Positions 14,627 through 59,216 of a DNA stretch of 64,000 nucleotides are shown here, one piece after another. Source of the stretch: Botryllus schlosseri. Taxonomy: Eukaryota. The DNA is taken from contig CM119371.1 of the NCBI GenBank assembly GCA_051294905.1, positions 37,016,001 through 37,080,000 on the forward strand, in the 5' to 3' direction. Made by a program: the position numbers and the translations under genes. The notes below the pieces were generated by a model that did not search any database, had not been told where the DNA came from, and was given only the letters and a program-made list of their open reading frames with translations. Positions within the stretch are counted from its first letter, which is position 1; every line of letters begins with the position of its first letter.

Positions 14627-15673
14627 ATGCATAACGGTGCCAAAAATCATGAATGTGATGTATGTGGGAAAATATTTACTCGGAAGTGTGACCTCAAGAG
14701 TCATATGGAGATGCATGCTGGCGTCAAAAACCATGCATGTAATGTGTGTGGAAAAGCATTTACTCAGAAAGTTAGCCTCAAACTCCATATGGACATACAT
14801 GCTGGCATCAAAAATCATGAATGTGCTGTGTGTGGAAAAGCATTTCATCGCAAACCTAACCTCAAGCTTCATATGGAGGTGCATGCTGGCGTCAAGAACC
14901 ATGAATGTAATGTGTGTGGCAAAGCTTTTACTCAGAAGGTAGGCCTCAATCGTCATATGAAGATCCATGCTGGCGTCAAAAATCATGAATGTGCTGTCTG
15001 TGGGAAATCATTTACCCATACGGGTGACATGAAGCTTCATATGCAGATGCATTTTGGCATCAAAAACCATGAATGTGATATATGTGGGAAAGCATTTACT
15101 CAGAAGAGTCATCTGAAGCTTCATATGCAGACGCATATTGGGATCAAAAATCATGAATGTGCTGTTTGTGGAAAATCATTTACTCAACAGAATAGCCTCA
15201 AGCTTCACATGGACATGCATGCTGATGTAAAAAATCATGAATGTGCTGTGTGTGGGAAAGCATTTACTCATAAGGGTCACCTGAAACCTCATAAGGAGAT
15301 GCATGTTGGGATCAAAAACCATGAATGTGCTGTGTGTGGAAAAGCATTTACTCGGAAGGGTCACCTCGAGCGTCATATGAAGAACCATGCAGGCGTCAAA
15401 AATCATGAATGTGCTGTGTGTGGAAAAGCATTTACTCAGCAGAGTACCCTCAAGCTTCATATGCAGATGCATATTGAGATCAAAAATCATGAATGCGCTG
15501 TTTGTGGAAAATCATTTACTCACAAGAATAGCCTCAAGCTTCACATGGAGATGCATTTTGGGATCAAAAACCATGAATGTGATATATGTGGGAAAGCATT
15601 GACTCGGAAGACAACCCTTACCGGACATATCCGGATACATGATTGCATGAAAAATCATAAATCTGGAATATGA
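14627..15673 (+). CDS. Tandem C2H2 zinc-finger protein ZNF-A, 12 fingers, no other domain
   Basis: 348-aa ORF of 28-aa C-x2-C-x12-H-x3-H repeats with HAGVKNHEC-type linkers, uninterrupted. The true start may lie on an upstream exon, since the frame is open back to TTTAG at about 14584. Confidence 0.85.
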   Translation: MHNGAKNHECDVCGKIFTRKCDLKSHMEMHAGVKNHACNVCGKAFTQKVSLKLHMDIHAGIKNHECAVCGKAFHRKPNLKLHMEVHAGVKNHECNVCGKAFTQKVGLNRHMKIHAGVKNHECAVCGKSFTHTGDMKLHMQMHFGIKNHECDICGKAFTQKSHLKLHMQTHIGIKNHECAVCGKSFTQQNSLKLHMDMHADVKNHECAVCGKAFTHKGHLKPHKEMHVGIKNHECAVCGKAFTRKGHLERHMKNHAGVKNHECAVCGKAFTQQSTLKLHMQMHIEIKNHECAVCGKSFTHKNSLKLHMEMHFGIKNHECDICGKALTRKTTLTGHIRIHDCMKNHKSGI

Positions 15674-17896
15674 GAAAATACATTTACTCAAAAGAGTCAC
15701 TTCGAACTCCATATGATTATCCTTGCTGACATCAAAAATCCTGTCTGCAATATGGGCAAGAAACCTCGAACATGCCCCTGACATGGTGGCGGAGTGGCAT
15801 TACAGTCCAAGTATACCCCATACGTAATGCTGTCCGCTCGCTGACATACAATATTTGTTTATGAAGCGAAAAGCAATCGCTACCTACATTTGGGTAGGCC
15901 TACTCATCCATTAATCACATGTTGCGCATCTATGTGTCGATTAGTTATCTATAGTCGAACATTTCGTAGACACTCGGCAGCATCTGGCGTCTGAGCGGGT
16001 TTGGCTTCTGTTGCACTCACGTGCATAGTCGTATTGAATTCACTGAACGCCAAATACCATGTTCAAAGTCTATTTCTGGTGAACTCCCGATTAATCCATT
16101 TTTTTCATATCACCTTACTATGTGCACCGAAATCGCGAGTGGTCTTGTTATGAACTGACCGGAAGTCAAGGAAATCGCTTGAATTCACTAATGAATTTCG
16201 TCATTATTATTAGTAGTTACCCATATTACTATCAAATATTTAAATGATGAAGCGGGAGTTTTCAAAAATTTGTGGCAAGTTATGAATGATGATGCATTTT
16301 CGGACTTTGTTGCATGCTGTTTTTTTCTTGAGCTGTCGTCAGGATTTTCGGTATAGTGGTAAGATGTTGGAAACGCCCAAACGTACCAGAAACAAATTTC
16401 TTTTGTGAAGGGCACACGGTTGCAAGTTGGTATTTATATCATTTTCCTCTGCTGTTCGCATCTGTACTGTGGGGCTCTGATTGCAAAGTACGCCTCTATA
16501 TTAAAATAAAAAAATTAATGAAGTCGCACTAAATATCGCATAGCGCGAAGAAAATCTCAAGTGTAATTAAAATCTCTCAAAAATTCGGGAGTCCATTCAT
16601 AAATTCAATTTCCGTGTCGACGGTGAATTACGTGTCGAAGTGAATTACGTGTTAACGGATGCTCAAAATTTTTTCTACAGCTGCATGTTGCTGGGATGTA
16701 ACCAAGTCACAAGGTTCCGGGTCACTAGTCAATCCCGGGTTTTAATGACTCGACTTGAGTCACGATTTTTTGATGACTGGACTTGACTCGAGTCATTTTC
16801 TCAAAATAGGGAAATGACTTGATTCGACTCCAGTCAATTTGTGTATTGACTCGACTTGGGCTCGATTCATTGCGCATGACTCGGACCAAGTCATATGAAT
16901 CGAGACTCGGACGGCCAAGGCCGACATTTAATCGTAATTCCGAAGAATAGTAATATAGCCAGACTATAGGGATTTCGTTTATTGGTACTGGTACTTGAAA
17001 ATGCGACCAGAAACTGCTAAAAGTGAGGAAAATCATAATTTATAAATTCGAACCATTCGATATCACTAAACGGAGTTACAAAAATTGGATTTAACAAGAC
17101 TTGAACTGGAAACTGAGCAGTCGACACAATGACTTGGACTCGGACTCGAGTCATAATACCATGTCTCGGACTCGACCCTCTGATCGCTGACTTGGACTTG
17201 GACTAGACTCGCTGGTGTATTGAAAATGACTCGACTTGACTCGAGTCAAAACTATAAAAGTGAGATTGACTTGTGATTCGGAGCCTTGTGACTTGGTTAC
17301 AACCCTGAGTCAATCTCACTTTTATAGTTTTGACTCGTGTCAAGTCAAGTCGTTTTTAATTCATCACCGAGTTAGTTCCGAGTCCGCTAGTACAGGGTCG
17401 AGTCCGAGTCAAAGTCGTTATGTCCATTGTTCAATTTCCAGTTCAATCCGGTTCAACCCACATTTTCAACTCTGCTTGAGTGATATAGAATGGTAAATTT
17501 CCCCAGTCTAATAGTTTCTGGTCCTATTCTCCAAGTATCGAGACTGATATACGAGAAACCAAGAATGCGTTAACTTTACTATCCTTCAGAGTTAAAATGA
17601 AATGTCTGTCCCGACCGTCCTAGTGTCGAGTCATATGACTTGGTTCGAGTGATGCACAATGAATCTAGTCACTAAATTTTTGCGACTGGCGTCGAGTCAT
17701 TACAACCCAGGCAGGTTGACCAGCCCTGAGCGAGAGCATTGATTTCCAGTGCTTTACAACAAGTGTTTTACCTGACATGCTGTTGTGTTTCAAATTGCCA
17801 TAAATATTGTGTTGCTATTGTTGCAGATTAGTTGTAGTTGTCGAGAATTCAAAAGTTCTGTATACAGGATAACGTGACTATGACTGGTAATTGGCT

Positions 17897-18013
17897 ATGC
17901 TGCTGCATCAGCCCTTTACAGCGTTGGTGTTTCACATAGGGCAGGCATATACAAAAGTTGGGATTGCTGCGGACTCGACACCCCACATGCCCCCACTGTT
18001 CTTAAAATCCATG
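17897..18013 (+). pseudogene. ACTR10: ACTR10-like first coding exon, copy 2 (rest of gene largely deleted)
   Basis: MLLHQPFTALVFHIGQAYTKVGIAADSTPH...; GTGAGT donor at 18014. Flanks are homologous to 300-720 and 28500-30000. Confidence 0.7.
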
Positions 18014-19991
18014 GTGAGTTGAGGAACGCCAAGTTGTGCTTATACTATTACTCAAAGTATTTTAGTTGAACATTTTCTGATACAGAATTAGCCGGTTTAT
18101 AATTTTCATCAGCCGTAACCAGACAATCCAATGTATAATGCGAAATGTGATGTAAGAAACATATATCGTTTCAATTTATTCATCATTTCAAAAACATCAC
18201 ACGATTGGTAGGAAGGACAGGAAGTCGAAGCGACCGAGTAGTTTTCAACGAAACAACAACCTTGGAATAGAACATATATATAAGAGGAATGCACGCTGAA
18301 TTGATGGTGTAACATTCTAGAATATGTATGTATAATTACTTGAACCTTGTCATCACATGCTCAACCCTCTTCTAGAGTGAAAATTGAAGTACCGGTAGTC
18401 GTTGAATTTTTTAGGGGCAGAGATCGCAGTAATCTCTAGATTACTCATATCTTCTATGTCTAGAACACCAAAACTTTGGAGTACGGTAATTATTTGTTAA
18501 TGGAATATTATTGTGCTGAAATGCTGCAATATTTTTAGTTTTTCGCTGTAATATGTGAAGAAATCCTCTGTTTATATAGCTAAATAATCTGTCCATGATA
18601 TCATAGTAAATACCTAGTAGATCTAACTGGTGCACTTTATTTGTTTGTTAATTTTTATTTCTGGTTGTGTTCTTTATTTTGTATTTCATGATAAATGATG
18701 GACACCAAGCCTCGGTGACGGTGACAGTAGTTCACTCGTTCTACTGTCCTGTAACATTATCTATTTTCTATATGTTGCATTTATTTGATTTCCAAACTCA
18801 ACTCTTCTCTGAACAAAACGTAGCCTATTTCGCATTTTGTATTTCAAACTTCAAACCGCGTCAGCGGTGTCTTACGAAAGCCTAGAGGTGGGCCTAAGTC
18901 AGCAGTTATGGAAAATGATGAAGAATATCGACCTGGTGTAAATGACCATTGCAGTCGAGTGAGTCGACAAACACCGCGAATACCCCTAAACAAAAGTTCA
19001 CTATTCAATAGTACAAGTACAATTAGTACAAGTAAGCTACAACAAGTACAAGTAGGTCTTCCAGGTGGTACGCGAGTGGATTCTGTTTTTTTCGACCGAA
19101 GGGAGTAGGCTAATTAGTTAAGGTGGGGCTGAACATAAATATTGTTCTCCAATAAACATTCAGGCTTAGCATGGCCTCCTAGTACTCAACTCTAGCTTCT
19201 CACGCTATTCCCCAACTGCTAAGTTTCCTTTTTACGTGGGAGTGCGAGCAAGGATTTTTATATTCGATGAGTGATGACTATCATGTCGAAGAAACGAAAC
19301 CGACTTGAGCCCATGCATGACTATCGGTGCGCTGTGAGCTAACATATGCCACGCATCGACCAGCTAGTGCAGTGTTCTCAAACTGGGGGGCGTGAAACCA
19401 TCTGAAGGGGGCGCGATCGCGAAACTGCGGCCAACTGATTTTTTTTTTCGCGCTTCGCGCGATTTACCCCCAATTCATTGTTTTTGTTTTATGTATAGTC
19501 CTTATTGCATATTTAAGAATTCTCCTATCAACTGTCATAATCTTCCGTGTCATCAAATTATTCTTTGGGATTGCTAGCATTCTGGTTGCATTTTGTGATA
19601 TGACGATAAGGGCTAATTCCATTATAACTTAACAGGGGCTGTAATGCATACCCTCAGAATTGTCCAATATTTACAAATGTTGTTCTTTTTTGAATTCTGG
19701 GTACATTAAAAAAAAGTAGATTGAAAAATTTCCAGCGGTTCAAAAGATAATGCAATTCAAAATTATCATGTCACTAGGTGGCGCTGCACGCAAAATTCTC
19801 AAAAATCCATATTTTTTGCTGTAATAATGGTGGAGAATCACTTAAAATGTCTAATTATACAATTTTGGGGCCAAGGAATTCAAAAAAATCAACATTTTCG
19901 CTCTAAACTCGAAGAAAAAAAAGTTACGGACAAAACAAAATTGGGGGGGAGCGGACTTGAAAATCCATGTAGGCTACCGTTTACAGAAAAA

Positions 19992-20286
19992 AAAATTATT
20001 GCAAAATGTACTCTGAAGCAGTGTGATTGAGAAACAATTGGATTTTTAAATTAATCTCTATTCCTCAAGGAAATCACGAAAAAAATAATCTTTGCTTTGA
20101 CTGATTGATTATAATAGTAGTTGTGGTGGGCAGCAGTGCAAATCTGCTCACCGTAACTACTATATTAAGCAATCACTTGAAGCAAAGATTATTTTTTTTC
20201 GTGATTTCCTTGAGGAATAGAGATTAATTTAAAAATCCAATTGTTTCTCAATCACACTGCTTCAGAGTACATTCTGCAATAATTTT
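19992..20286. repeat. About 295-bp near-perfect palindrome
   Basis: AAAATTATTGCAAAATGTACTCTGAAGCAGTGTGATTGAG... is the reverse complement of ...CTCAATCACACTGCTTCAGAGTACATTCTGCAATAATTTT. Pairing continues imperfectly to a loop of about 10 nt near 20135-20143. Confidence 0.9.
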
Positions 20287-21084
20287 CGTTGGTATCGTAG
20301 ATTTTGCACTGTCGGTGAACGTATCATGTGATATTTTACAGCTTGTAGCCTACTTTATAGGCCTACTGTTGTAAACGGCCAATAGTCTGCTCATACTGAA
20401 TCATCAACGGTCAAATGAAACAAATAGGTGGACATGGTATTATGGTCAACGTACCGCAATATCCTAACTGGGGCATGATTCTTATATTGAGAAGCGCATG
20501 ATGAAAAATTGTAATAAACAACATTGTCAGAATGAAGCAACATGGTGTCTTACCAGTAGTGTATGCACAACTTGAGTGTTGTCAGCCAACAACTGCTGCT
20601 GTTGAACGTCCTTGATGCACTTTTTACCCAAGAATATAGGAAAGTATCTCTCGTTGTACTACAATTTTTTTAAATTATTTCCACCATAATACGTATTGCA
20701 ACCACTGGAATTCTTCATAGGGCCAGATTTCGTTAAAATATTGTTTTTTATATGTACAAAGTTGCCTGTTTCTATGCCAAAAACGTATTTTCAGGCCAAA
20801 CTACTTTGTTGGGACAGCCAGTTACAACCGGAAATGTAGATAACTGGTACAATTTTGACATTATTTAGGAAAACACCTAATTTGCATACGATAGGTCAAA
20901 ATTTGGTCAAAATTCATTTTTTTAGGTCAAAAAAAGTCAAAATTTTAATTTTTTAGGTCAAAATTTTCTTTTTTTAGGTAAAAAAAAAACCACTCTAGTC
21001 ATTAGTAGTACTGTAACACGTGTTCTTTGAATGCTTTAGAGTCGATAGCAGTAGTTTATGCTTTGGAGCAACAATATTGCAGTC

Positions 21085-25899: not shown

Positions 25900-26466
25900 G
25901 TGTGTAGTTTTGTAGGCTACTACCGGTTTCGTATGCTACAGTACGACCAATCCAGGTTTAAAGGCCTCCACGGTGGAAAATAGTATCGGAAATATAGAAC
26001 GCGTCTGTATTTGTTTTTTCCAACGAAAATATCAAACAAACAGGCGATATGATCAATCGAGATTCATAGCCGTACACAGTGAAAATTGCATCAAAATTGT
26101 AATTGAATATCTCAAATATTAGCGACAAGATCATATAATTTCAGTGGTCGAAAATATCACTTCTGTCTATTCGACTCTAATCGTTAGAATTAATACTTGA
26201 TTCAGATTCGAGTACGGTTCTCAAATCATTGTGCCCAGCCATATTGATGAGTTGATTAGAGTTAACAAACTTTGTTACAAATCTGTTGGTAATTTGTGCC
26301 TAACATTTTACACTTGAATACTTCGAGTATGATGTTATCTCAATTCCTATATATAGTACATTCATTAGCAATCATTTCAACAAGTGACTTAAATATTATA
26401 ACTATTCATCATGTCTTTGAATATCGTTTAGCAGATGCTCACTAGAGTAGTGGAGGATTAGGGGAT

Positions 26467-27597
26467 ATGCATACCGGTGTCAAAATTCATGAATGTGATG
26501 TATGTGGAAAATCGTTTACTCGCAAGAGTAAACTGAAGCGTCATATGAAGATCCATGCTGGCGTTAAAAATCATGAATGTGCTGTGTGTGGGAAAGCATT
26601 TACTCAGAAGGGTAACCTGAAGCTTCATACGGAGACACATGCTGGCGTCAAGGGCCATGAATGTGCTGTGTGTGGAAAATCATTTACTCTCAAGAGTAAC
26701 CTCCAACGGCATATGGAGATACATGCTGGCGTCAAAAACCATGAATGTGATTTGTGTGGAAAAGCTTTTACTCAGAAGAGAAACCTCAAGTTTCATATCA
26801 ATATGCATGCTGGCGTCAAGAATCATGAATGTGACGTGTGTGGAAAATTATTTACTCAGAAGGGTAGCCTGAAGCTTCATATGGAGACGCATGCTGGCGT
26901 CAAGGGCCATGAATGTGCTGTGTGTGGAAAATCAGTTACTCTTAAGAGTATCCTCCAACGTCATATGGAGATACATGCTGGCGTCAAAAACCATGAATGT
27001 AATCTGTGTGGGAAAGCATTTATTCAGAAGGGAGACCTCAAGCTTCATATGAATATACATGCTGGCGTCAAAAATCATGAATGTGCTGTGTGTGGAAAAT
27101 CATTTACTTACAAGAATAACCTCAAGCGTCATATGGTGATGCATGTTGGCATCAAAAATCATGAATGTGATGTGTGTGGAAAATTATTTACTCAGAAGGG
27201 TAGCCTGAAGCTTCATATGGAGACGCATGCTGGCGTCAAGGGCCATGAATGTGCTGTGTGTGGAAAATCAGTTACTTTCAAGAGTAACCTCCAACGTCAT
27301 ATGGAGATACATGCTGGCGTCAAAAACCATGAATGTAATCTGTGTGGGAAAGCATTTATTCAGCAGGGAGATCTCAAGCTTCATATGAATATACATGCTG
27401 GCGTCAAAAATCATGAATGTGCTGTGTGTGGAAAATCATTTACTCACAAGAATAACCTCAAGCGTCATATGGCGATGCATGTTGGCATCAAAAATCATGA
27501 ATGTGATGTGTGTGGGAAGGCATTTACTGAGAAGACAACCCTTACCGGACATATGCGGATGCATGCTTGCATGAAAAATCATGAATGTGGTATATGA
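26467..27597 (+). CDS. Tandem C2H2 zinc-finger protein ZNF-B, 13 fingers
   Basis: 376-aa uninterrupted ORF of 28-aa C2H2 repeats. Fingers 5-8 are duplicated as 9-12. Confidence 0.85.
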   Translation: MHTGVKIHECDVCGKSFTRKSKLKRHMKIHAGVKNHECAVCGKAFTQKGNLKLHTETHAGVKGHECAVCGKSFTLKSNLQRHMEIHAGVKNHECDLCGKAFTQKRNLKFHINMHAGVKNHECDVCGKLFTQKGSLKLHMETHAGVKGHECAVCGKSVTLKSILQRHMEIHAGVKNHECNLCGKAFIQKGDLKLHMNIHAGVKNHECAVCGKSFTYKNNLKRHMVMHVGIKNHECDVCGKLFTQKGSLKLHMETHAGVKGHECAVCGKSVTFKSNLQRHMEIHAGVKNHECNLCGKAFIQQGDLKLHMNIHAGVKNHECAVCGKSFTHKNNLKRHMAMHVGIKNHECDVCGKAFTEKTTLTGHMRMHACMKNHECGI

Positions 27598-29444
27598 GGG
27601 AAGGCATTTACTCGGAACAGTCACTTTGAATTCCATATGAATATCCTTGCTGATATCAAAAATCTTGTCTGCAATATTTGCAACAAAGCTCGAACATGCC
27701 CCAGGCGTGGTATCCGAGTGGCAATACAGTCCAAATAATCTACCCCATACGTAATGATGTCCGGTCGCTTGCATGCAATATTTTACGGTTACGAAGCGAC
27801 CAGCAATCGCTAGGTACAACTCGGTACTCATCCGTTAATCACATGCGCACCTATTCGTTGGTTAGTTATCTATTATCAAATGCTTCGTAGTCACTCGGCC
27901 GCGTCTGGCATCTGAGTAAGGTTTATCTTGTGTTGCACTCAAGTGTATAGTCGTATTGAACTTACTTGACGCCAAACACCCATGCTCAAAGTCCATCTCT
28001 GGTGAACTCCTGATTAATCTATTTTATCATATCAGCTTACTATGTGCACCAAAATCGTGAGTGGTCTTGTTACGAACAGTTACTGGGAGTTCACAAGATC
28101 GCTTGAATTCAATAATGAATTCCGTCATTAATATTAGTAGTTCCACATATTACTGTCGTTTATTTAAATGATGAAGGGGGTATTTTCAAAAATTTAGGGC
28201 AAGTTATGAATGATGAATGATGATGCACCTTCGGACTTCGTTGCATGCTGTTTTTTCTAGAACTTCCATCAGGATTGTCCGTATAGTGGTAAGATGTTGG
28301 AATCACTCAAACGTATCAGAAAATCTCAAATGTAATCCAGTTCTCTCAAAAATTCGGGGGTCTCTTCATAAATTCTAGTTGCATGTCGACGGACGCCTAC
28401 ACATACGGGACTGATAGACAATATACCAATCATGTGTTAACTTTACTATTCTTTGAAGTTACGATGAAATGTCTGCCCTTGGTTTGAGTCGTGCACAATG
28501 ACTCGAGTCACTAAAATGACCCGGCTTGAGTCGAATCATTACAAACCTGGCAGGTTGGCCGGCCCTGAACGAGAATATCGATTTCCAGTGCTTTACAACA
28601 AGTGTTTCACGTGACATGCTGTTATGTTTCAAATTACCATAAATATTGTGTTGCTATTGTTGCAGATTAGTTGTAGTCGCCGAGAATTCGAAAGTTCTGT
28701 ATACAGGATAGCGTGACTATGACTGGTAATTGGCTATTCTGCTGTATCGGCCCTTTACAGCGGTGGTGTGTCACATGAGGCAAGCCTATATGAAAGTTGC
28801 AATTGCTGCAGAATCGACGCTCACTGTTCTGAAAATCCATGGTGAGTTGACGAACGCCGCATTGTTGTTGTTGTTGTGAGTTAGACATTTACTGATTCAT
28901 AATTAGCGGTTTTACAATTTTCATCAGCCCTAACTAGGCAATCCAATATACAGTGCTAAACACATGGGCCTATAGCTGGATTTCTAAATGAAACAATCAA
29001 GTCAGTCCAGTTCAATTTAATAATTCGTCATTTCAAAAACATCACAAGATTGCGATAAATGTAAGGTAGGAAGGAAAGGATGTCGAAACGGCCGAGTAGT
29101 TTTCAACGAAACACCCACCTTGAAATAGAACATGTATATAAGAGGAATGCACTCTGAATTGATGGTATAACAGACTAGAATATCTGCATGTTTAATGACT
29201 TGAACGTTGTCATCACATGCTCAACCTTTTTCTAGATAGAAGATTGAAGAAATCGGTAAATTTTACGGGGTAGTGATCGCAGTGGAACTGAATACTGATG
29301 CATTGGTTTATATATCTTCTGTTTAGAACACCAAAACTTTGGAGTACGGTAGTTATTTACTAATGTAATATTATTGTGCTGAAATGCTGTAATATTTTAG
29401 TTTTTCGCTGTAATATGTGAAGAAATCCTCTGTTTATATAGCTA

Positions 29445-29730
29445 GACAAGATAGCGTTGTGGTGAAGCGTCCTGCTTCTTAATGGGTTGATCGTGGGTTC
29501 GATCCGTGACCGGGTCAGACCAAAGACCTGATTAGTCACACCAATCCATGTCTTCCCTGCTTGGCGCTCGTGCATTACTGGGATAGCATAGAGGGGTGGT
29601 GCAATACTTAGAATGCCAGATAAGGCTATATCTGCACCTCCCTTGTCCAGCGGCATATGCACAGATCGTGTGCAGGTATATCATGAGTCGGTTTATACGC
29701 CGTAAAAACATTAGGGACGAAAAATAAATC
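29445..29730 (+). mobile_element. tRNA-derived SINE (family 1); second copy at about 45730-45910
   Basis: Pol III A-box-like TAGCGTTGTGG and B-box GGTTCGATCC, then CCGGGTCAGACCAAAGAC...TTCCCTGCTTGGCGCTC, with an A-rich end. The paralogous site at about 18578 (TATAGCTAAATAATCTG) is empty. Confidence 0.75.
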
Positions 29731-32700
29731 CTAAATAATCTGTCCATATTATGATAGTAAAGAACTACTAGGTGTAGCTGGTGCACTTTATTTGTTTATT
29801 TTTTTCTCTGGTTGTGTTTTTATTTTGTATTTCATGATAAATTATGGGCACCAAGCCTCGATGACAGTGACAGTCGTTCACTCGTTCTTTTGTACTGCAA
29901 CATTATTTATTTTCTATACGTTGCATTTATTTGATTTCCAAACTCACTCTTCTGTGAAAAAACGTAGCCTATTCGCATTTTGTATTTCAAACATTAGGAG
30001 TTTCCTCATTTGTGTTCAAGCGTAGTAAGTACCGCTGCGATGATAGCAGTAACCTAACATGAATCCACATTTTATCAAATTCACATTTCATACATAATTT
30101 GGCTTTTGGTGTAACGACCCCAGACAGGGTTTCTTAAACCTTTTTGATCGCGGATCACGTCAAGTTTTCTGGACGGTTGTGCGTAACCCCCAAATTTCAG
30201 TGGCCAAAGACCGAAAGGTCATCACCTCAAACTGTATTTAGGCTATTTCACTTCTAAAATAACATAACAAATGCCCAGATAAAGTAGGCACAGCCCGACT
30301 CATGATGTCGTTCTCAGAGGTTAATCTGGTTTTGTAGTTTCTTGATGACGTAATGCCCTTTCACCTCCCCCTAAAACGACTTCGCGGATCCCTAAGGGGT
30401 GCCCAGTTCGAGAGCCCCTGACCTAAGATTTCGGTATGTTTTGATATGATTATTTGCCATTGTCATGCTCATTTGAATTAAATCTGATCTGATAAAGAAC
30501 TGAAGTTGATTTTTGTTGTAATTCTTTCTAATGCGGAATGTTATTCAATCATCAACTTGTTGAGAATTCAGTTATTTTTATTGTTATCTAATTTTGAAAA
30601 ATCTGTGTTGCTACATGATATTAATTCTAATATCATTTGTTAAAGCTGTCCAACTCTCCTTGACAGCTTGCGGGACGCGCCGTTCTCCAACAGATTCAAA
30701 CTTTCATCCGAGCTCGCCGCCTGATGACGATGCAAGATGGAAATCCTGTGAAAATAACGGAAGACCGCCCGCTTTCGGTCATAGAAGGTATAAAGGTTTA
30801 TGCGGGTCAGTACCCCGTGAAATGGGTCCACTGCGACGACACGCTACATTCTGATTTTCCGAGATCGTTTTGAACTTTCCGGGAGCTGGATCACGTTGTC
30901 GTCAGTCCAACTACGCCCATATTTTGTCAAAGTAGTCACGGCTGCTACTCTTGGCAAACTCAAAGTAACGTTGTAAATCTCTACTCGAGTACAAGAAAGG
31001 ATTTATACAATTGATTAGTGGTAGTATATTCATATTGAAATGAACTCGAATATTTAATAATTGTCAGCAAGTACCGTAGTAGCGAATTGTTAAGAACATT
31101 GTATATCAGCAATCGCATCACAAAATATAACGTCACCAGCATGAAATTTCAAATCGTGGCGAAGAGAGTGCTTAGCTCAAGGTTCTATTTTTAGATGGTA
31201 GGCTACACGAATTCCGTCTGTTGGCACAAACTAGGTTGGTGCATTTTGATAAAAGTCGAGTCCGAGGCACCCAGTTTGCGTGCCATCTAAAATAGTACAT
31301 TAAATCAGGGTTGTAACCAAGTCACAAGTCAATCTCAGTTTTATAGTTCTGACTCGAGTCAAGTCGAGTCATTTTCAATTCAAGTCCGAGTCCATATCAG
31401 CTAATAGACGGTCGAGTCCGAGTTATTATCTTAACTGTTCAGTTTACAGTTCAATCCGGCTCAACCCCCTTCCAACTGTGCTCGGGTGATATGGATTGGC
31501 TCGCATTCATAATATAGCAATTCCACCTGGTCTTGACAGTTTCTGGCCCTATTGTCGAAGTATTCGGACTGATGGACAAAATCTAAATAATGTGATAACT
31601 TTGCCATTCATCACGGTTATAATGAAATGTCTGTCTTGGCCGTTCCAGTCTAAGGTCGTATGGCTTGGTTCGAGTCATGCAAAATGATTCGGGTGCAAGT
31701 TGAGTCAATACAAGAATTGAGTCGAGTCATTTTATGCCACTTATAATAACTAAAAATGTAAAGGAGCGATTTCTAAGACCTGTCAAAACTCAGGGTGTGA
31801 CAAAAGTCACAAGGTTTCGACTCACGAGTCAATTTGACTTTTATAATTTTGACTCGAGTCAAGCCGAGTAATTTATAATTTACCACCGAGTCGCCACCTA
31901 AAAATTACGAGTTTAAGCGAGCTCTCTTTGCTTTGAATCTTTCGATTATTCGAAATTTAATGCTGGTGAGGTCATATGTTGGGATACCGTACCATTATTG
32001 ATATACAAAATCTTTTCCAATGACAATTATCCCTGACGAGTGTCAGCCGAAAATATTCGGGCTCGTTTCAATTTGAATTCACTATTCAATAGTAGGCTAC
32101 GTATTGAGTATCAGAACCGGACACAGAACACATATTAGTGTCTGTAGAAATAGCGGCATTGGCCGGCTCCAGCCGACATTTCTCGTGAAATTCTGTCGTT
32201 TCGTGTCAGGTCAAGTCGCGTTTCGTCACGGAGCACCGAAGTGCCAAAGAAATCCAGGCTCACAGGATCGCCCAGTGGGAGGCCGCGCTGAAACGTGAGA
32301 ACGGCGTGGAAACCATGATTTCTGCGTGTCGACTCACCGCCCCCTGGCATGGTGTATCCGATGGGCGGTTGATGATTCCGGGGCTGGCACGGGAAGAAGC
32401 CGCAGAGATTTTGTTCGAACAGGTTTGATTTTGTTAGTTTTCAAATTGGTGCTATGGTGCTCAATATACATGGGGGGCGTACTACATTTGCAAAATTACG
32501 GTAGTACAAAGTTATGCGCGTTACTGACATATCAGTGAAGTTGTGATCAACCCACAGCGTTGACACGAAGTGCAAAGAAATAGTCATTGTCGAAAAAACT
32601 ACTAAATTATCTTTCATGTGATCGTAACATATGCGTACGCACTACGCAGCAATGCCGTGAGTGTAGTACAACACAACTTGAAAGCAGCCTGGGCCTCGTT

Positions 32701-33154
32701 CAAGACTTGTTATCTGGGAAATCTTAGGAGACTCTGTAAATGATAAATAATTAAAATTCATTGGAATTGGGCAGTACAATTTAACGAGATTAGGCAGTAT
32801 AGACCTGATCTCGTCTCGCTTCATGGTGTAGTTGGTTCTGAATCCAACGATATATTACTCATTGGTTTCGCATCCCGTTAAGGTCATGCTTTACAGTTTT
32901 GAAAAGTCAAGCAAAATCTTTTGGAAAAACCAGCCGGTGCCAGCCAGTTAAGACCATTATCTGTGAAATCTAAGGAGACTCTAAATACTAAATCATTAAA
33001 ATTCATTGGATTTAGACAGTCTACGATTTAGCTAAATTTGGCAGCATAATGAAGGCTTGCAAACAGCTTAGTCGTAATTCTTACGAAAGACACTAAGCTG
33101 AAGTTGATGATTTTAAGCAGGACTTAGCCTTGCTGAGACTTTCAAAGAACCATG

Positions 33155-33604
33155 CAGGGTTGTAACCAAGTCACATGGCTCCGAGTCAAAAGTCAATTTC
33201 ACTTTTATAATTTTGACTTGTGTCAAGTCGAGTCATTTTCAATTCGCCACTGAGTCAAGTCCGAGTGATGGTATTGTGACTCGAGTCCGTGTCATTGCGT
33301 TGACTGCCAAGTTTCCCGTTGAAGACTTGTTAAACAGACTTTGTATAACTCTGTTTGATGATATCGAAAAATTCGCATTTATAATATACTAATTTTCCTT
33401 ACTTCTAACAGTTTCTGGTCGCATTTTCAAGTACCGTTCCAGTACAAATAGACGAAATCCCAATAGTGTGGTTACTTTACTATTCTTCTAAATTACAATG
33501 AAATGTCGGTCTTGGACGTCTGTGTCTCGAGTCATTTCTGTAGTTTGAGAAAATGATTCAAGTCGAGTCATCGGAAAATCGTGACCCGAGTCATTACAAC
33601 CCTG
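33155..33604. mobile_element. About 450-bp hAT-type MITE rich in GACTCGAGTC palindromes; the most abundant repeat in the window
   Basis: Termini CAGGGTTGTAA / TTACAACCCTG with 8-bp TSD GAACCATG/GAACCCTG. Other full or partial copies at about 1-315, 3190-3745, 5115-5690, 8178-8720, 16693-17710, 23179-23544, 31307-31900, 33990-34520, 35878-36335 and 63386-64000. Confidence 0.85.
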
Positions 33605-40500: not shown

Positions 40501-40981
40501 CTACATCACATTGAAGATTTGTGGTATTTTTCGACCATACCTGTGTGATGCGATAGCACTTTGTGACAATGCTGTGATTCATCACGACTTTACAAATGTG
40601 TCATTTCAACTAACGTGCGCAGCGTTGTGCTACCGGTTTCGTATGTTGCGTTATGATCAATCAAGATTAACAGCCTTGCACAGTCAAAAATTGCATCAAA
40701 ATTATTATTATCTATCGGTAATAAATTAACTTTTAGCGACGAGAAGGATCGTATCATTATTAGAGTAAGCAAACTTTCTTGCAAAATCTTTTAGAACTTT
40801 GTGCCAAACATTTTGCGCTTAAAGACTTCAAGTACTACGTTACCGCAATTGCCATATATAGATGCAATCAGTATCAATCATTTCAACAAATGAGTGTTAC
40901 AGACAGACATATTCTAACTATTCATCCTGACTTGAAATATCGTTTAGGTGATATTTACAAGAGTGGGGAGGATCAGAGGAT

Positions 40982-42847
40982 ATGCATTCCGGCGCCAAAA
41001 ATCATGAATGTGATGATTGTGGGAAAGCATTTACTCGTAAGGGTAGCCTGAAGCTTCATATGAAGACGCATGATGAAGTCAAGAACCATGAATGCAATGT
41101 GCGTGGAAAAGCATTTACGTATACAGAACATCTGAACCTTCATAAGGACATGCATTCTGGCGCCAAGAACCATGAATGTAATGTGTGTGGAAAAGCTTTC
41201 ACTCAGAAGGGAGGCCTCAAGCTTCATATGAAGATCCATGCTGGCGTCAAAAATCATGAATGTGCTGTGTGTGGGAAAGCATTTACTCGGAAGGGTAACC
41301 TGAAGAGTCATTTAGAGCTGCATGCTGGCGTCAAAAATCATGAATGTGATGTGTGTGGGAAAGCCTTTACTCAGAAGGGAGACCTGAGGCTTCATATGAA
41401 GATCCATGCTGGCGTCAAGAATCATGAATGTGCTGTGTGTGGAAAATCATTTACTTGGAAGGGTAGCCACAAACTTCATATGAAGATCCACGCTGGCATC
41501 AAAAATCATGAATGTGCTGTGTGTGGGAAAGCATTTACTTTGAAGGGTAGCCTGAAACTTCATATGGAGATGCATGCTGGCGTCAAAAATTCTCAATGTT
41601 CTGTGTGTGGAAAAGTATTTACTCAAACGGGTCACCTCAAACTTCATATGGAGATGCATTCTGGCGTCAAAAATTATCAATGCGCTGTGTGTGGAAAAGC
41701 GTTTACTCACAAGGGTAGCCTCAAACGTCACATGGAGATGCATGCAGGCGTAAAAAATTATGAATGTAATATCTGTGGAAAAGCATTTACTCAAAAGGGT
41801 AACCTCAAGCTTCATATAGAGATGCATGCTGGCGTCAAAAATCATCAATGTGCTGTGTGTGGGAAAGCATTTACTAGCAAGGGTGAGCTCAAACTTCATA
41901 TGGAGATGCATGCTGGCGTCAAAAATCATCAATGTTCTGTGTGTGGAAAAGTATTTACTCAAGCGGGTTACGTCAAACTTCATATGGAGATGCATTCTGG
42001 TGTCAAAAATCATCAATGTGCTGTATGTGGGAAAGCATTTACTGGGAAGGGTAACCTCAACCTTCATATGGAGATGCATGCTGGCGTCAAAAATTATGAA
42101 TGTGATATCTGTGGAAAAGCATTTACTCAGAAGGGTAACCTCAAGCTTCATATGGAGATGCATGCTGGCGTCAAAAATTATGAATGTGATATCTGTGGAA
42201 AAGCATTTACTCAGAAGGGTAACTTCAAGCTTCATATGGAGATGCATGCTGCCGTCAAAAATCATCAATGTTCTGTTTGTGGAAAAGAATTTACTCAGAA
42301 GGGTAGCCTGAAACTTCATATGGATATGCATGCTGGCGTCAAAAATCATTCATGTTCTTTGTTTGGGAAAGCATTTACTGGTAAGCGTGACCTCAAACTT
42401 CATATGGAGATGCATGCTGGCGTCAAAAATTACCAATGTGATGTGTGTGGGAAAGCATTTACCCAGAAGGGTAGCCTCAAACTTCACATGGAGATGCATG
42501 CTGGCGTCAAAAATCACCAATGTGCTGTGTGTGGGAAAGCATTTACTCAGAAGGGAGGTCTCAAACTTCATATGAAGATCCATGCTGGCATCAAAAATCA
42601 TGAATGTGCTGTGTGTGGTAAAGCATTTACTCATAAGGGTAGCCTCAAACTTCATATGGATTTGCATGCTGGCGTCAAAAAACATCAATGTGCTTTGTGT
42701 GGGAAAGCATTTAGTGGTAAGCGTGACCTCAAACTTCATATGGAGATGCATGCTGGCGTCAAAAATCACCAATGTGATGTGTGTGGGAAAGCATTTACCC
42801 AGAAGGGTAGCCTCAAACTTCATATGGAGACGCATGCTGGCGTCTAA
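40982..42847 (+). CDS. Tandem C2H2 zinc-finger protein ZNF-C, 22 repeats (two lack the second Cys); three more disrupted fingers follow to 43122
   Basis: 621-aa ORF ending in a TAA inside the linker. The repeat continues past the stop with a second TAA and a 5-bp insertion near 42908. Could be a truncated gene or a young pseudogene. Confidence 0.7.
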   Translation: MHSGAKNHECDDCGKAFTRKGSLKLHMKTHDEVKNHECNVRGKAFTYTEHLNLHKDMHSGAKNHECNVCGKAFTQKGGLKLHMKIHAGVKNHECAVCGKAFTRKGNLKSHLELHAGVKNHECDVCGKAFTQKGDLRLHMKIHAGVKNHECAVCGKSFTWKGSHKLHMKIHAGIKNHECAVCGKAFTLKGSLKLHMEMHAGVKNSQCSVCGKVFTQTGHLKLHMEMHSGVKNYQCAVCGKAFTHKGSLKRHMEMHAGVKNYECNICGKAFTQKGNLKLHIEMHAGVKNHQCAVCGKAFTSKGELKLHMEMHAGVKNHQCSVCGKVFTQAGYVKLHMEMHSGVKNHQCAVCGKAFTGKGNLNLHMEMHAGVKNYECDICGKAFTQKGNLKLHMEMHAGVKNYECDICGKAFTQKGNFKLHMEMHAAVKNHQCSVCGKEFTQKGSLKLHMDMHAGVKNHSCSLFGKAFTGKRDLKLHMEMHAGVKNYQCDVCGKAFTQKGSLKLHMEMHAGVKNHQCAVCGKAFTQKGGLKLHMKIHAGIKNHECAVCGKAFTHKGSLKLHMDLHAGVKKHQCALCGKAFSGKRDLKLHMEMHAGVKNHQCDVCGKAFTQKGSLKLHMETHAGV

Positions 42848-43330
42848 AATCATTAATGTTCTGTGTGTGGAAAAGCATTTACTCAATCGGGTGACCTCAA
42901 ACTTCATACGGTATGGAGATACATGCTGGCGTCAGAAATCATGAATGTGATGTATATAGGACAGGATTTACTCATATGGATCACCAGAAGCTTTGTATGG
43001 AGATGCATGCTGGCGTCAAATATCATCAATGTTCTGTGTGTGGAAAAGCATTTACTCAGAAGGGTAACCTCAAACTTCATATGGAGATGTATGCTGGTTT
43101 CCAATTTGGCTCAGTTGCATGAAGCAGAAGCGAAGTTATGACAATTTGAAATTTCAACCATTTTGTAAAATAATAGTATTGACGGTGCCTAATTTTTTCA
43201 AATTACCAAACATCATGTTCCATGCGTTTTTATGTGGGATGTGATGAGACTGCGTTTGCGTAAAGACATTAACTGAATACAAATTTAGACGCTCATTCGC
43301 TGGAAATCGGTGAGATTCATTTTGATAGCC

Positions 43331-47987: not shown

Positions 47988-48584
47988 TTGTATACTGAAG
48001 TTCTGTACCTCCAAGAAACTCTTACCTATCTTTAGAGTTTTAGACATCCTCATCATTTTAGACTCGAGTAATTTTGTCAGAGTCTGTCTGTCCAACGGAT
48101 TGCTCGGTCCGCTGTATTTAGTATTGGTTAGTATTGCAATTTACGCCTGATCCACTGTTCGCTCGGTTCGCTGTTTAGTGTTGGCCGTGATGTGATTACA
48201 ATAACAACAATATCATCATGAAGTGAATACTATAAGAAAATTATTGGGTATAGTTCTACTTCAGTACGATGAGGGTTGCTGTGATTACAGACTTGTATGA
48301 ACCAAACATTCAGTTGGTTGATGGTCAACTAACTAACTAACAAGTTTTGAGTAGTTCTAGTTCTAGTTGCGGATTTGAAATTGAGTACCGTTAGTTCTAT
48401 AGGGGCAGATTTTGAAAATTCAGTAGTTCAAGCTACACATTTGAAAAAAACAATAGTTGCCGAACAGCTAGAAAACACGTGTCGTGGTTTTGGACGAATT
48501 GAGTGGCCGGTGTTCCATTGAATGGCGTTTGTACAGTCATTTCTCGCTCAGAGCCATCACCGCTGACAGTCGTGGGGTGGCGGG

Positions 48585-54600: not shown

Positions 54601-54787
54601 GTGCCCAACATTTTATGTTTAAAGGACTTCAAGTAGGATGTTATCTCAATTGCTATATATAGATAGTACATTCAGTAGCGATCATATCAAAATGTGAGTG
54701 ACACAAAGACTCTAAATTCTAACTGTTCATCATGACTTGAAATTTCGTTTAGGTGATATTTACAGGAGTAGTGAAGGATCATAGTAT

Positions 54788-57700
54788 ATGCATACCGGTG
54801 TCAAAATTCATGAATGTGATATATGTGGAAAATTATTTACTCAGAAGTGTAACCTCAAGCATCATAAGGAGATGCATGTTGGCGTCAAGAACCATGAATG
54901 CAATGTGTGTGGGAAAGCTTTTACTCAGAAGGGTACCCTCAAGCTTCATATGGACATGCATGCTGGTGTCAAAAATCATGAATGTGCTGTGTGCGGAAAA
55001 GCATTTACTGGTCACCTGAAGCGTCATATGGAGTTGAATTATGGTGTCAAAAATCATGAATGTGCTGTGTGTGCGAAAGCATTTGCTCGGAAGGGAGGCC
55101 TCAAGCGGCATATGAAGATGCATGCTGGCGTCAAAACTCATGAATGTGCTGTGTGTGGGAAAGCATTTACCCACAAGGGTAACCTCAAACTTCATATGGA
55201 GATGCATGCTGGCGTCAAAATCCATGAATGTAATGCATGTGGAAAAGCTTTTACTCAGAAGGGTAACCTCAAAGTTTCACATGGAGATGCATGCTGGTGT
55301 CAACAAACATGTATGTGATATATGCGGAAAGGCATTTCCTCACAGGGGTAGCCTCAAGCTGCATATGGAGATGCATGCTGGCGTCCAAAATCATGAATGT
55401 GCTGTTTGTGGAAAGGCATTTACTCAGAAGGGTAACCTTGAGCTTCATATGAAGATGCATGCTGGCGTCAAGAACCATGAATGTAATGTGTGTGGCAAAT
55501 CTTTTACTCTGAAGGGAGGCCTCAAGCGTCATATGGACAATTGGACATGCATTCTGGCGTCAAAATTCATGCATGTGCTGTGTGTGGAAAATTGTTTACT
55601 CACAACGGTAACCTCAAGCATCATATGGAGATGCATGCTGGCGTCAAAAATCATGAATGTGTTGTGTGTGGGAAAGCCTTTACTGGTCACCTGAAGCATC
55701 ATATGGAGATGCATGTTGGTGTCAAAAATCATGAATGTGATGTGTGCGGAAAAGCATTTGCTCACAAGCTTACCCTCAAGCTGCATATGGAGATGCATGC
55801 TGGCTTCAAAATTCATGCATGTGCAGTGTGTGGAAAATTGTTTACTCACAAGGGTAACCTCAAGCGTCATATGGAGATGCATGCTGGCATCAAAAATCAT
55901 GAATGTGCTGTGTGTGGAAAATCATTTACTCACCAGAATAGCCTCAAGCTTCATATGAAGATGCATGCTGGCATCAAAAATCATGAATGTGCTGTGTGTG
56001 GAAAAGCATTTACTCAGAAGGGTAACCTCAAGCGCCATACGGATATACATGCTGGCGTCAAAAACCATGAATGTAGTTTGTGTGGGAAAGCTTTTACTCA
56101 GAAGGGTGACCTCAAGCGTCATAGGGCCATGCATGCTGGATTCAAAAATCATGAATGTTCTGTGTGTGGAAAAGCATTTACTCGGATGAATTACCTGAAG
56201 CTTCATATGGAGATGCATGCTGGCGTCAAAAATTATGAATGTGCTGTGTGTGGGAAAGCATTTACTCACAAGTGTCACCTGAAGATTCATATGCAGATGC
56301 ATGCTGGCGTCAAAAATCATGAATGTGCTGTGTGTGGGAAAGCATTTACCCACAAGGGTAGCCTCAACCTTCATATGGAGATGCATGCTGGCGTCAAAAA
56401 CCATGAATGTAATGTATGTGGAAAAGCTTTTACTCAGAAGGGTAACCTCAAGTTTCATATGCGGATGCATGCTGGTGTCAACAAACATGTATGTGATGCA
56501 TGTGGAAAGGCATTTCCTCACAAGGGCAACCTCAAGCTTCATATTGAGATGCATGCTGGAGTCTAAAATCATAAATGTGCTGTGTGTGGAAAAGCATTTA
56601 CTCAGAAGGGTAACCTCGTTCTTCATATGAAGATGCATGCTGGCGTCAAGAACCATGAATGTAATGTGTGTGGTGTGGCAAAGCTTTTACTCTGAAAGGA
56701 GGCCTCAAGCGTCATATGGACATGCATGCTGGCGTCAAAATTCATGCATGTGCTGTGTGTGGAGAATTGTTTACTCACAAGGGTAACCTCAAGCCTCATA
56801 TGGAGATGCATTCTGGCGTCAAAAATCATGAATGTGCTGTGTGTGGGAAAGCATTTACTGGTCACCTGAAGGATCATATGGAGATGCATGTTGGTGTCAA
56901 AAATCATGAATGTGATGTGTGCGGAAAAGCATTTGCTCACAAGGTTAAAGGTCAACTATATCGACCAAAACAACTTTGGCTCATTTTGTAGAGTTTGTTA
57001 TGCTGATTCCAATAATATACATCCTGCCTCCTAAAATTAAGTATTTCTTGAGATATCGCAGTGCAAACTGCCGACTTCTGAGAAACGGCTGTAAAATCAG
57101 CGACCGTGTCGATGACGTACTACCAGGATGTTTTGCCGATACATGGAAAACTGAATGGGATGTCTAAGTCAGTCGTAGGTTGTTTTCTTCGCCTTAACTG
57201 CCTGATGCTGCGATGTTTTGATCCGTCGGGCCCGACTGGACTATTCCATCTTCATTTTATGGTACTTTAGGTTCATATAATTTGCGATGCCTAGTGTACA
57301 GGGAGTACAGAAATGAACGTGCAATGCAAGAATCCAGTTCTGTTTACATCTCATTTATTGATTCCATGGAAACGCCACCTCTTTGGGATGAGGTGGGCTA
57401 GCTGCCCTGCACTTCAATGAAAACAGATGAAGAGAGCAGAAGAAAATCAAGCCGGAGAGACATTTTTTGCAGAAAAATATGTAAAATGTAAGGAAGGCTG
57501 TCTCGTTAATAAAAGTGCTCACTGATGTACAGTATTATTCAGTAGGATGCTATAGTCATTGATTACTTTGAGGAGAACTTTGTCATCACACTTCCTCTAC
57601 CACAAATGATACTGTACAAAGGAGAAGAACGAGTTCTGAAGTCACATCTGTCATTGAATCGTTTACCTAGAGGTGTGATCAGAACCCCCTCCTCTCGCTG

Positions 57701-59216
57701 CTGCACGCGCACGATGGTAACGAAATCAAGCCACCAGATAGCAGAGAACTTGGTTCAACACATCATGATGAAGTGGTATCACGGAAGGTAATTATTATTT
57801 CAAACTGACTTTCCCTAACAACTTCAGAGTTTTGTAACTTCAAACAACCACCCCTGTTATAGGCTTACATAAAAACCCTTGTTCTTGCTGCTGGCTTTCA
57901 CTTGGATATTGAACCGGTGTTACAATAAAAAAGAGTAAATCGAGTGTTAGTGAGTGTATATGATTTAATTTCTGCTGTAAATGATTATTTCAGCGACGTT
58001 GACAATCCTGTCTGAGGGCATCATGCTGAAGCATAACATCAAGAAAAGAAAAATCCTGGAAATATCAAGACTTATTCACACAGATTTATTGGGATGATTG
58101 CCTTCTATGAAATTATAAATCTTACGATTCTGTATGTATTAAAACCTAATAAAAGGTTCTGACTGTTCCATATGTATTAGAATCGAGTAAAAGCTTTTGG
58201 GTAAAGTCATTTTATTACATACAAAGATAAGTGAAAGTAGCGGACTGTGTGAGAACTGATCAGCGGTGTTGAGATACTTCGAATCCAGTGCATGCGGCGG
58301 AGATGAATTCCAGTCTGAGTGAATCTAGTCGGGTCGAGCGTCTCTGAAAAGTCGATATGTACTAGTTATATGCATCAGTCCTCAAGCTTAGATCCTCAGC
58401 ATACCGCACAATCGTACATGCATACAGTACTCCTATTGTTTTAGACGTGCAATACCAATCATTTGGCAATACGGTACGGTACTTTCGTCGTCCAGGAATG
58501 CCCAAGTAATTGTATATACCATTCAATTATATGGGAATTCCTCAATAGTGTCAAAATAAGATTTACTAGACACCGTGTCGCTATCAGTTGACTCCGCAGC
58601 TTCTGCAGAAGTTGACATTATCCCACTTCAATACATACAGCACGGCCGCAGCATCAGAAATCCTCCTGGTAGTACGTCATCGACATGGTTCATTGATTTT
58701 ACTACCGTTTTGGTCTGTGGTGGTATTTTGCGACTTTTGCTGCTCGATATCTCAGAAACTACGTGATTTTAGAAGATATGAGGTATATTATTGGAATCAG
58801 CATGCGAAAGTCTACAGAATGAGCCAAAGTTGTTTTGGTCGATAGAGTTGACCTTTAACCTCAAGCTGCATATGGAGATGCATGCTGGCATCAAAAATCA
58901 TGAATGTACTATGTGTCGAAAAGCATTTCGTCACAAGGGTAATCTCAAACTTCATATGAAGATGCATGCTGGTATCAAAAATCATGAATGTGCTGTGTGT
59001 GGTAAATCATTTACTCGCCAGAATAGCCTCAACCTTCATATGAAGATTCATGCTGGCGTGAAAAATCCTGAATGGGCCGTGCGTGGAAAATCATTTACTC
59101 ATCAGAGTAACCTCAAACCTCATATGGAGCTGCATGCTGGCGTCAAAAGCCATGAATGTAATGTCTGTGGAAAAGCTTTTACTCACAAGGGAGACCTTAA
59201 GCATCGTATATTATGA
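54788..59216 (+). pseudogene. Tandem C2H2 zinc-finger array ZNF-D, about 30 fingers, disrupted
   Basis: Continuous 84-bp finger repeats with a +1 frameshift (about 55272), +8 (about 55539), TAA at 56564, +5 (about 56670) and a 1.9-kb insertion at 56949-58854 splitting finger 26 (HKV|NLKLH). Confidence 0.85.
56949..58854. mobile_element. Non-autonomous Kolobok-like DNA transposon (1906 bp) inside ZNF-D
   Basis: TTAA duplicated at 56945-56948 and 58855-58858. Imperfect TIR of about 100 bp, AGGTCAACTATATCGACCAAAACAACTTTGGCTCATT / AATGAGCCAAAGTTGTTTTGGTCGATAGAGTTGACCT. AG...CT termini fit Kolobok rather than piggyBac (CC...GG). Confidence 0.8.

Follow-up and report, generated by a model that had tools for sequence, protein, structure and literature searches.

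The cluster and the unit that carries it

The window analysed here is a stretch of 64,000 nucleotides from Botryllus schlosseri (contig CM119371.1, positions 37,016,001 to 37,080,000). It holds a tandem cluster of four C2H2 zinc-finger arrays, A1 to A4, all on the plus strand. A sequence-only reading had described arrays of 12, 13, about 25 and about 30 units with an 84-bp period, and these are real. Tandem Repeats Finder gives 11.6, 13.6, 25.1 and 25.8+4.0 copies of the 84-bp unit at 78-81% matches, and there are 67 in-frame matches to C-x2-C-x12-H-x3-H (12, 13, 20 and 22 in A1 to A4). The fingers adjoin each other, at least four in a row with 7-residue linkers, as in tandem poly-C2H2 proteins of the Krueppel type.

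The A1 array exon (14585..15673) is intact, with a coding sequence at 14627-15673 for 348 amino acids and 12 fingers. So is that of A2 (26432..27597; coding sequence 26467-27597, 376 amino acids, 13 fingers). These two have a stop in common and their last fingers are 89% identical. A3 (40948..43097) has 25 units, of which 22 lie in an open reading frame of 621 amino acids (40982-42847); stops and a frameshift follow unit 22, and the second Cys is absent from two of the 22. A4 is a pseudogene array, with frameshifts, stops and fingers shortened to 78 nt in its 5' part (54753..56948) and its last 4 units (58855..59216) beyond a transposon insertion. Of the four genes, A1 and A2 alone are intact; A3 is a truncated or dying gene and A4 is a broken one. 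The birth and death of genes that had been proposed is plain enough in a tandem cluster with two members intact, one cut short and one broken. We rejected a candidate fifth gene at 48.6-49.1 kb since its match breaks off at the terminal inverted repeat of a small dispersed element, and the adjoining blocks are collinear with the region upstream of A4 itself.

The insertion in an A4 finger is a DNA transposon of 1.9 kb (56949..58854), which we take to be Kolobok-like. TTAA is duplicated on both sides and the terminal inverted repeats match at 84% over 126 nt. The surroundings had been said to hold many recently active transposons; a few of the 25 longest inverted repeats are indeed 94-99% complementary, but most are at 72-88%. 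Finger number evidently alters via internal block duplication; fingers 9-12 of A2 are a recent copy of fingers 5-8. Part of the array turnover is mutational, because the longest arrays, A3 and A4, are also the damaged ones and the defective 78-nt fingers have been multiplied within A4 too.

Self-BLAST places collinear blocks around all four arrays. Exons of ACTR10 (Arp10/11) map in three copies on the plus strand. The first (482..8871), upstream of A1 and within the tandem unit, is broken. The second (17884..18850), between A1 and A2, is a 5' remnant whose right edge is that of the DNA homology block. The third (28690..36500), between A2 and A3, is also broken, with in-frame stops and a deletion in one exon. 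The alignments show that the cluster grew by head-to-tail duplication of a unit of finger gene plus ACTR10, and that ACTR10 then decayed. The best named full-length match to an ACTR10 exon is from another ascidian, Phallusia mammillata; a single-exon ACTR10 word search found nothing. Two ways of joining ACTR10 to the fingers were considered and rejected. Copy 1 terminates at a stop of its own (8871), leaving 5.7 kb to the A1 acceptor, and just a 5' remnant lies upstream of A2 with none seen at A4, which lends a fusion no support. An operon does not fit either, the spacings here being unlike those of Ciona operons, which the accessible text of PMC1488885 describes as mostly without intercistronic DNA.

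Where the genes start

A branch-point-like stretch, a TTTAG acceptor and a short leader precede the ATG of A1 (14540..14626, plus strand), and this arrangement is conserved: the paralogous acceptor stretches of A2, A3 and A4 end at 26431, 40947 and 54752. From acceptor to ATG the leader measures 42, 35, 34 and 35 nt in A1 to A4, which makes three different phases. Stops in the finger frame interrupt it in A2, A3 and A4, and the ATG is kept in all four. With three phases, and stops in three of four copies, the leader is probably untranslated and likely a 5' UTR. Translation would begin at this ATG, which lies nine codons ahead of the first Cys. The message may take its 5' end from an untranslated exon or from a spliced leader, which ascidians add to many mRNAs.

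The claim that no KRAB, SCAN, ZAD, BTB or SET domain is visible holds up. We searched Pfam with 386 segments that run from stop to stop and lie outside the arrays, namely the 150 longest counting both strands and every plus-strand one of at least 38 aa upstream of 54,800; they matched none of these domains and neither THAP nor SSXRD. Pfam matches nothing in an ORF of 325 aa at 21,313, whose Atlas scores stay below 0.9. Leader and Pfam search together suggest that the proteins probably consist of nothing but zinc fingers and are effector-less.

A different reading is that an upstream coding exon, present or past, supplies an effector unknown to Pfam and is spliced to the array in phase 1, as with FiNZ in cyprinids. 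The conserved acceptor before each array is what KRAB- and FiNZ-ZNF genes have (PMC10547256), the ATG corresponds to a Met in what is left of a degraded finger tail, A1 and A3 both have a conserved donor-like site upstream (12376 and 38396), and Pfam misses small novel exons. The difficulty is in the phases. If such an exon joined in phase 1 then A2, A3 and A4 would be dead or recently truncated, and the stops in three of four copies fall within about 150 nt in total, against 2.2 kb of open frame in A1 and A2. Apart from the ACTR10 exons, the best 70 of 224 six-frame self-matches reveal no conserved upstream protein block. We consider this reading quite unlikely.

RNA reads from four runs were mapped on 12,300-28,600, which of the four arrays takes in A1 and A2. 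Depth over the two arrays is 0-2.9 per strand and the matches are mostly partial; dispersed repeats gave most of the signal, with 71-99% of mapped reads continuing into unlike sequence. Among the joints and loose ends listed (15 out of 67 and 24 out of 1,200, respectively), none falls at the A1 or A2 acceptor.

Comparison with PRDM9

The arrays had been likened to PRDM9, as minisatellites with homogenised units. The cluster does share with PRDM9 an 84-bp coding repeat, blocks duplicated within the array and contact residues that vary, and the tandem units in one exon with recent block duplications are what a recombination or meiotic-drive factor would have if its array were a coding minisatellite under concerted evolution. 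The homogenisation is not borne out, and the analogy fails. Mean unit identity is 77-83% within arrays vs 79-81% between them; units of A1 are no more alike inside A1 than to those of other genes. Contact sites hold 0.25-0.34 of the diversity (0.22-0.25 with three sites instead of four), whereas for PRDM9 the figure is 0.687 in human, 0.910 in mouse (Table 1 of PMC5519329) and mostly 0.4-1.0 overall. Among 111 fetched arrays the median share is 0.25 and the 95th percentile 0.40; the cluster lies between these and is ordinary in this respect. Unlike PRDM9, this is a cluster of several paralogues with units about 80% identical, and SET, KRAB and SSXRD went unmatched in the Pfam search. We believe the PRDM9-like reading is largely refuted and give it hardly any credence.

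Residues and selection

The linker is of the HAGVKNHEC type in place of HTGEKP, as claimed, with A at its first position in 55 of 69 units and T in none; the canonical TGEKP is not found in the arrays, which retain its G and K. Our recount of helix position -1 returns the same residues as before (Q, H, R, L, Y, F, W, E, S and G), and at +3 every residue claimed is present, with Y and I in addition. At +6, Leu occupies 44 of the 69 fingers, and Leu is a poor base reader. The scaffold had been called homogenised; it is not fixed. Non-contact unit positions 4, 9, 21 and 22 have entropies of 1.5-2.2 bits vs 1.8-2.6 at contact positions and are nearly as variable.

The fold itself is maintained. 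The zinc ligands and core (C, C, H, H, F, L) have omega of 0.05-0.12, which is strong purifying selection, and the roughly 2.2 kb of A1 and A2 contain no frameshift, whereas the paralogous flank has 71 indels of lengths not divisible by three over 5,531 aligned bases. Contact codons change fastest, with omega of 1.4-2.0 over 69 fingers at p values from 1e-6 to 0.10 depending on the model. On a tree from all positions, contact omega for all 69 fingers is 1.63 (p = 0.0008 vs 1); by helix position it is 1.86 at -1 and 2.06 at +3. An excess had been expected at -1, +2, +3 and +6; it is seen mainly at -1 and +3, and the +6 signal is weak. Four of the five amino-acid changes in the recent A2 block copy fall within helix -1 to +3. 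Closest-pair counts are biased because the pairs were picked on non-contact positions; a fair ratio from them is 1.2-1.7.

It is also conceivable that the genes are born and die without any conflict, the fold being held by purifying selection and the surface and contact positions drifting near neutrality. Constraint on synonymous sites, together with gene conversion, would then produce the apparent omega above 1, and gene conversion between fingers does violate the tree assumption of the omega tests (PMC5519329). Several results lean this way. The contact signal drops to p = 0.08-0.10 once contact codons have their own synonymous rate, and to an omega of 1.37 (p = 0.05) when the baseline is conserved codons not followed by G. 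For A1 and A2 alone on the full tree p is 0.06, and for single arrays on full trees omega above 1 is not significant (about 1.1 in A3). CpG observed/expected is low in the arrays (0.33-0.55 vs 0.93 elsewhere), so their synonymous sites are biased. Non-contact position 21 has an omega of 1.55-2.1, and in A4 even defective fingers multiplied. Against drift, contact sites outpace the nine most variable non-contact sites, a set chosen post hoc (1.64 vs 0.94, p = 7e-5 for 69 fingers; p = 0.017 in A1 and A2 alone), a within-codon CpG term leaves the contact estimate unchanged, and none of 37 neutral simulations, run without gene conversion, reached the observed signal. We regard neutral birth and death as unlikely, though it is the alternative that we take most seriously. 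Omega above 1 at contact sites is significant under some baselines only. The proposed diversification at DNA contacts stands in that these residues change fastest, but its excess over neutrality is model-dependent. The likely cause of this fast change is selection to recognise new targets in DNA.

Relatives and known systems

The family had been thought lineage-specific, and the databases agree. Among the matches listed, the best identity is 50% in the set of 210-671 aa and 56% in the short set. No family member is in the best 120 of 5,586 hits (8,000 candidates of 210-671 aa scored) or in the best 120 of 1,527 hits to short proteins, and no fetched protein is built on a HAGVKNHEC-type linker. 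The Atlas search returned generic C2H2 clusters alone. In the literature searched, mostly open-access main texts, we found no description of a subfamily with this linker. Among the transcription factors of tunicates the C2H2 family is the largest and varies most, at 72-310 genes (Table 1, PMC8122590), and the accessible text on these ascidian repertoires describes no subfamily with the linker and no selection test.

It is important to realize that the suggested undescribed analogue is not a new kind of thing. Positive selection at -1, 3 and 6 in lineage-specific expansions has been described in mammals, frog and fish (PMC2604467, PMC10547256). The KRAB-ZNFs (PMC2604467) and cyprinid FiNZ-ZNFs (PMC10547256) also have a single array exon, the C-x2-C-x12-H-x3-H finger, 7-residue linkers, tandem duplication and base-contact residues that change fastest. 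They differ in their upstream coding exon, KRAB or FiNZ-type, of which we found none here, in a TGEKPY linker where this one is AGVKNHE, and at +6, where the signal here is weak. KRAB-ZNFs have been recorded from tetrapods and from lobe-finned fish (PMC10547256). Repression of transposable elements has been shown for both groups and is a candidate role for the present cluster. A close parallel in architecture is offered by the ZF271-like/APEZ families of Oncopeltus fasciatus and the pea aphid, whose proteins have 3-45 repeats each and no domain besides fingers, as the present ones probably do not either (PMC6444547). These families expand in a species-specific way and form tandem clusters of few genes with pseudogenes among them (PMC6444547); A1 to A4 form just such a lineage-restricted tandem cluster with pseudogenes. 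The Botryllus cluster is distinct in its independent origin in a chordate lineage, its threonine-free linker and the site-wise estimates of omega. The lineage-specific subfamily is new; its kind has been described before in mammals, fish and insects.

What the cluster may do

We favor, with moderate confidence, four C2H2 paralogues in tandem that code for what are likely finger-only DNA-binding proteins, with base-reading residues likely retuned by selection. The proteins would contact DNA as zinc fingers usually do. With no effector domain, their effect would come from occupancy of the sites or from co-repressors recruited via the fingers. By analogy with fish and mammals, the changing targets would most likely be young repeats and the role may be transposon surveillance. 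A bolder version of this idea would be that sea squirts independently evolved effector-free transposon blockers, finger-only and made from spliced-leader-capped messages, with -1 and +3 retuned to young DNA transposons. The threonine-free linker would evade the mitotic phosphorylation that strips ordinary C2H2 proteins from chromatin and so keep them bound through rapid embryonic divisions. This is a long shot.

The cluster is an ascidian case of an animal-wide pattern, in which lineage-specific zinc-finger expansions have DNA-reading residues that change fastest. Knockdown tests are feasible in ascidian embryos. If these finger-only proteins do repress transposons the cluster would matter more, because it would show a chordate lineage doing so without a KRAB-type module.

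Finger genes in a duplicated unit

The four arrays of C2H2 zinc fingers, A1 to A4, sit in a head-to-tail duplicated unit whose flanks are collinear when the window is compared with itself and have diverged by about 15%. The unit includes exons of ACTR10, the Arp10/11 actin-related gene (Pfam Actin; best solved-structure matches Arp10/11), the first of which starts about 1.1 kb past the A2 stop. The best named full-length match to the two-exon ACTR10 alignment, among 13 hits, is ACTR10 of Phallusia mammillata, which makes an ascidian the probable source of the DNA. Mapping the Phallusia protein back onto the window gives three broken, intron-containing copies with stops and frame changes, all on the plus strand (482-8871, 17884-18850 and 28690-36500), in alternation with the finger genes. 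The best reading of ACTR10 is that of a passenger carried along in the duplicated unit. The first bases of the window belong to the flank block found after both A1 and A2; a further finger gene is therefore probable immediately before base 1.

A six-frame scan of the window finds 67 intact C-x2-C-x12-H-x3-H fingers in the four arrays, on the plus strand only: 12 in A1 (14,654-15,640), 13 in A2 (26,494-27,564), 20 in A3 and 22 in A4. Tandem Repeats Finder gives 25.1 units for A3 and 25.8 plus 4.0 for A4 (matches 78-81%), and therefore the 12, 13, about 25 and about 30 fingers counted in the sequence-only reading stand. The reading frames of A1 (348 aa) and A2 (376 aa) run uninterrupted from a conserved ATG to a common stop. 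The A3 frame covers 621 aa and 22 units, two of them missing the second Cys; beyond it lie stops and a frameshift. A4 is a pseudogene with several frameshifts, a stop and, within one finger, an inserted 1.9-kb element (56,949-58,854) with terminal inverted repeats and TTAA on both flanks, which we take to be a Kolobok-like transposon. Between 54,980 and 56,900 of A4 a 78-nt finger, minus two helix codons, is present three times; defective units were therefore multiplied together with good ones.

Other elements lie around the arrays. The upstream region of A1 holds an inserted 1.8-kb element (10467-12262) whose 302-nt terminal inverted repeats are 95% complementary and whose interior contains tandem repeats of 21, 24, 41 and 65 bp. 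Between A1 and A2 is a 325-aa open frame (21313-22290, plus strand) that on inspection resembles a transposase; Pfam gives no match and Atlas only weak ones. A LINE-type RT fragment at 46282-47115 (plus strand; RVT_1, E 1e-10) is truncated and frameshifted. Two 22-23-bp tandem arrays in opposite orientation (39562-40031 and 60611-60898) contain a telomere-like hexamer.

Variation among the fingers

We compared 69 in-register units (12, 13, 22 and 22 in A1 to A4), excluding A3 units 23-25 and the indel-bearing A4 units. Mean identity within arrays is 77, 81, 83 and 82%, and between arrays 79-81%. Of the 69 units, 47 have their closest relative within their own array, mostly because blocks were recently duplicated, as with A2 fingers 5-8 and 9-12. 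The common scaffold, earlier described as homogenised, is therefore family-wide inheritance and not gene-by-gene homogenisation.

The arrays had also been likened to PRDM9, the recombination factor with 84-bp finger repeats. The contact-site diversity statistic of Baker et al. was run in two versions, because the contact positions are unlisted in the sections of PMC5519329 used. It gives 0.25-0.34 for A1-A4 with positions -1/2/3/6 and 0.22-0.25 with -1/3/6, against 0.687 for human and 0.910 for mouse PRDM9 (PMC5519329). Across 111 fetched arrays of at least 8 fingers the median is 0.25 and the 95th percentile 0.40. By this statistic A1-A4 are ordinary, and the cluster is not PRDM9-like.

Under a fixed-class codon model, omega (site-wise dN/dS) is 0.05-0.12 at C, C, H, H, F and L and 0.4-0.7 at the remaining non-contact sites. 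Non-triplet indels number 71 in 5,531 aligned bases in the paralogous flanks and 0 in A1 and A2. At the contact codons (helix positions -1, +2, +3 and +6), omega is 1.63 (p = 0.0008 against 1; 69 fingers, tree from all positions). None of 37 neutral-contact simulations reached that value (maximum 1.29), and omega is also higher at contact sites than at the nine non-contact sites that vary most (1.64 against 0.94). Contact residues thus change faster than other sites, and this part of the earlier claim of diversification holds, with -1 (1.86) and +3 (2.06) carrying the signal (+2, 1.13; +6, 1.46). However, omega above 1 loses significance under some baselines and in single arrays: p is 0.08-0.10 when contact codons have their own synonymous rate, and 0.06 for A1 and A2 alone; A3 alone gives about 1.1. 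With conserved codons not followed by G as baseline, contact omega falls to 1.37 (p = 0.05), and position 21, past the first His, is fast as well. All four arrays are poor in CpG (observed/expected 0.33-0.55, against 0.93 elsewhere in the window), which may reflect germ-line methylation or the codon use of the ancestral unit; in such arrays the synonymous baseline can be depressed. Gene conversion, moreover, violates the tree model (PMC5519329). We believe positive selection at the contact residues is likely, but not proven.

Proteins probably without an effector

A Pfam search of 386 stop-to-stop segments lying beyond the arrays found no effector domain, although a small unknown one would escape it; its matches were an RVT fragment, actin-like exons and the sub-threshold CFAP43_N and Tubby_C_like. 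The local evidence for effector-less proteins is stronger. Ahead of each of the four arrays stands a shared branch-point-like stretch with a TTTAG acceptor, and in each an ATG is retained nine codons ahead of the first Cys. The stretch from acceptor to ATG is 42, 35, 34 and 35 nt long (A1 to A4), giving three different phases, and holds a finger-frame stop in A2, A3 and A4. It is likely a 5' UTR: with 2.2 kb of open frame kept in A1 and A2, a coding junction would not tolerate these phases and stops.

The acceptor may serve trans-splicing, because in Ciona a spliced leader is added to about half of expressed genes (PMC1488885). A donor-like site upstream, conserved between A1 and A3, is alternatively compatible with a conventional non-coding first exon. 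RNA reads from four runs over 12,300-28,600 reach an array-bin depth of 0-2.9 per strand, with 71-99% continuing into unlike sequence; at this low depth, 0 splice joints enter the acceptors among 15 of 67 joints. Each of the four finger genes has, 2.3-6.6 kb upstream, a copy of a short conserved block (10381-10449, 24085-24213, 38271-38323 and 48100-48216), which may be a promoter, a first-exon element or the end of an old repeat.

Proposed binding and targets

Invariant residues in A1 and A2 include the zinc ligands, Gly-Lys following the second Cys and the linker Lys. These fit finger-train binding, and the trains would bind the major groove in the ordinary way. The most frequent helix type carries Gln at -1, either Asn or Ser at +3, and Leu at +6. 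In the recognition code this combination favours A-rich triplets, one base being read with little specificity. Lacking an effector, such proteins would act through site occupancy or by recruiting partners via the fingers. Thr, the residue phosphorylated in C2H2 linkers, stands first in the linker of 0 of 69 units. In human cells linker phosphorylation is reported to take C2H2 proteins off mitotic chromatin (PMC4359306), so these proteins might escape that mitotic switch. ZNF and retroelement numbers are correlated across animals, and knockdown of FiNZ-ZNF, a cyprinid zinc-finger family, de-represses elements in zebrafish (PMC10547256). By analogy only, transposons would be the most likely moving target.

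Standing of the family

No close relative appears among the protein matches listed, and none of the 240 proteins fetched from them has more than 3 linkers of the A1-A4 type (HAGVKNHEC instead of HTGEKP). We found no description of this subfamily in the literature, and it looks lineage-restricted. C2H2 counts are reported to vary strongly among tunicates (PMC8122590). Finger-only tandem clusters with pseudogenes, described in Hemiptera (PMC6444547), are of the same kind, and positive selection at -1/3/6 is reported for vertebrate lineage expansions (PMC2604467). A1-A4 form a real, fast-turning, lineage-specific zinc-finger cluster of a kind already known.
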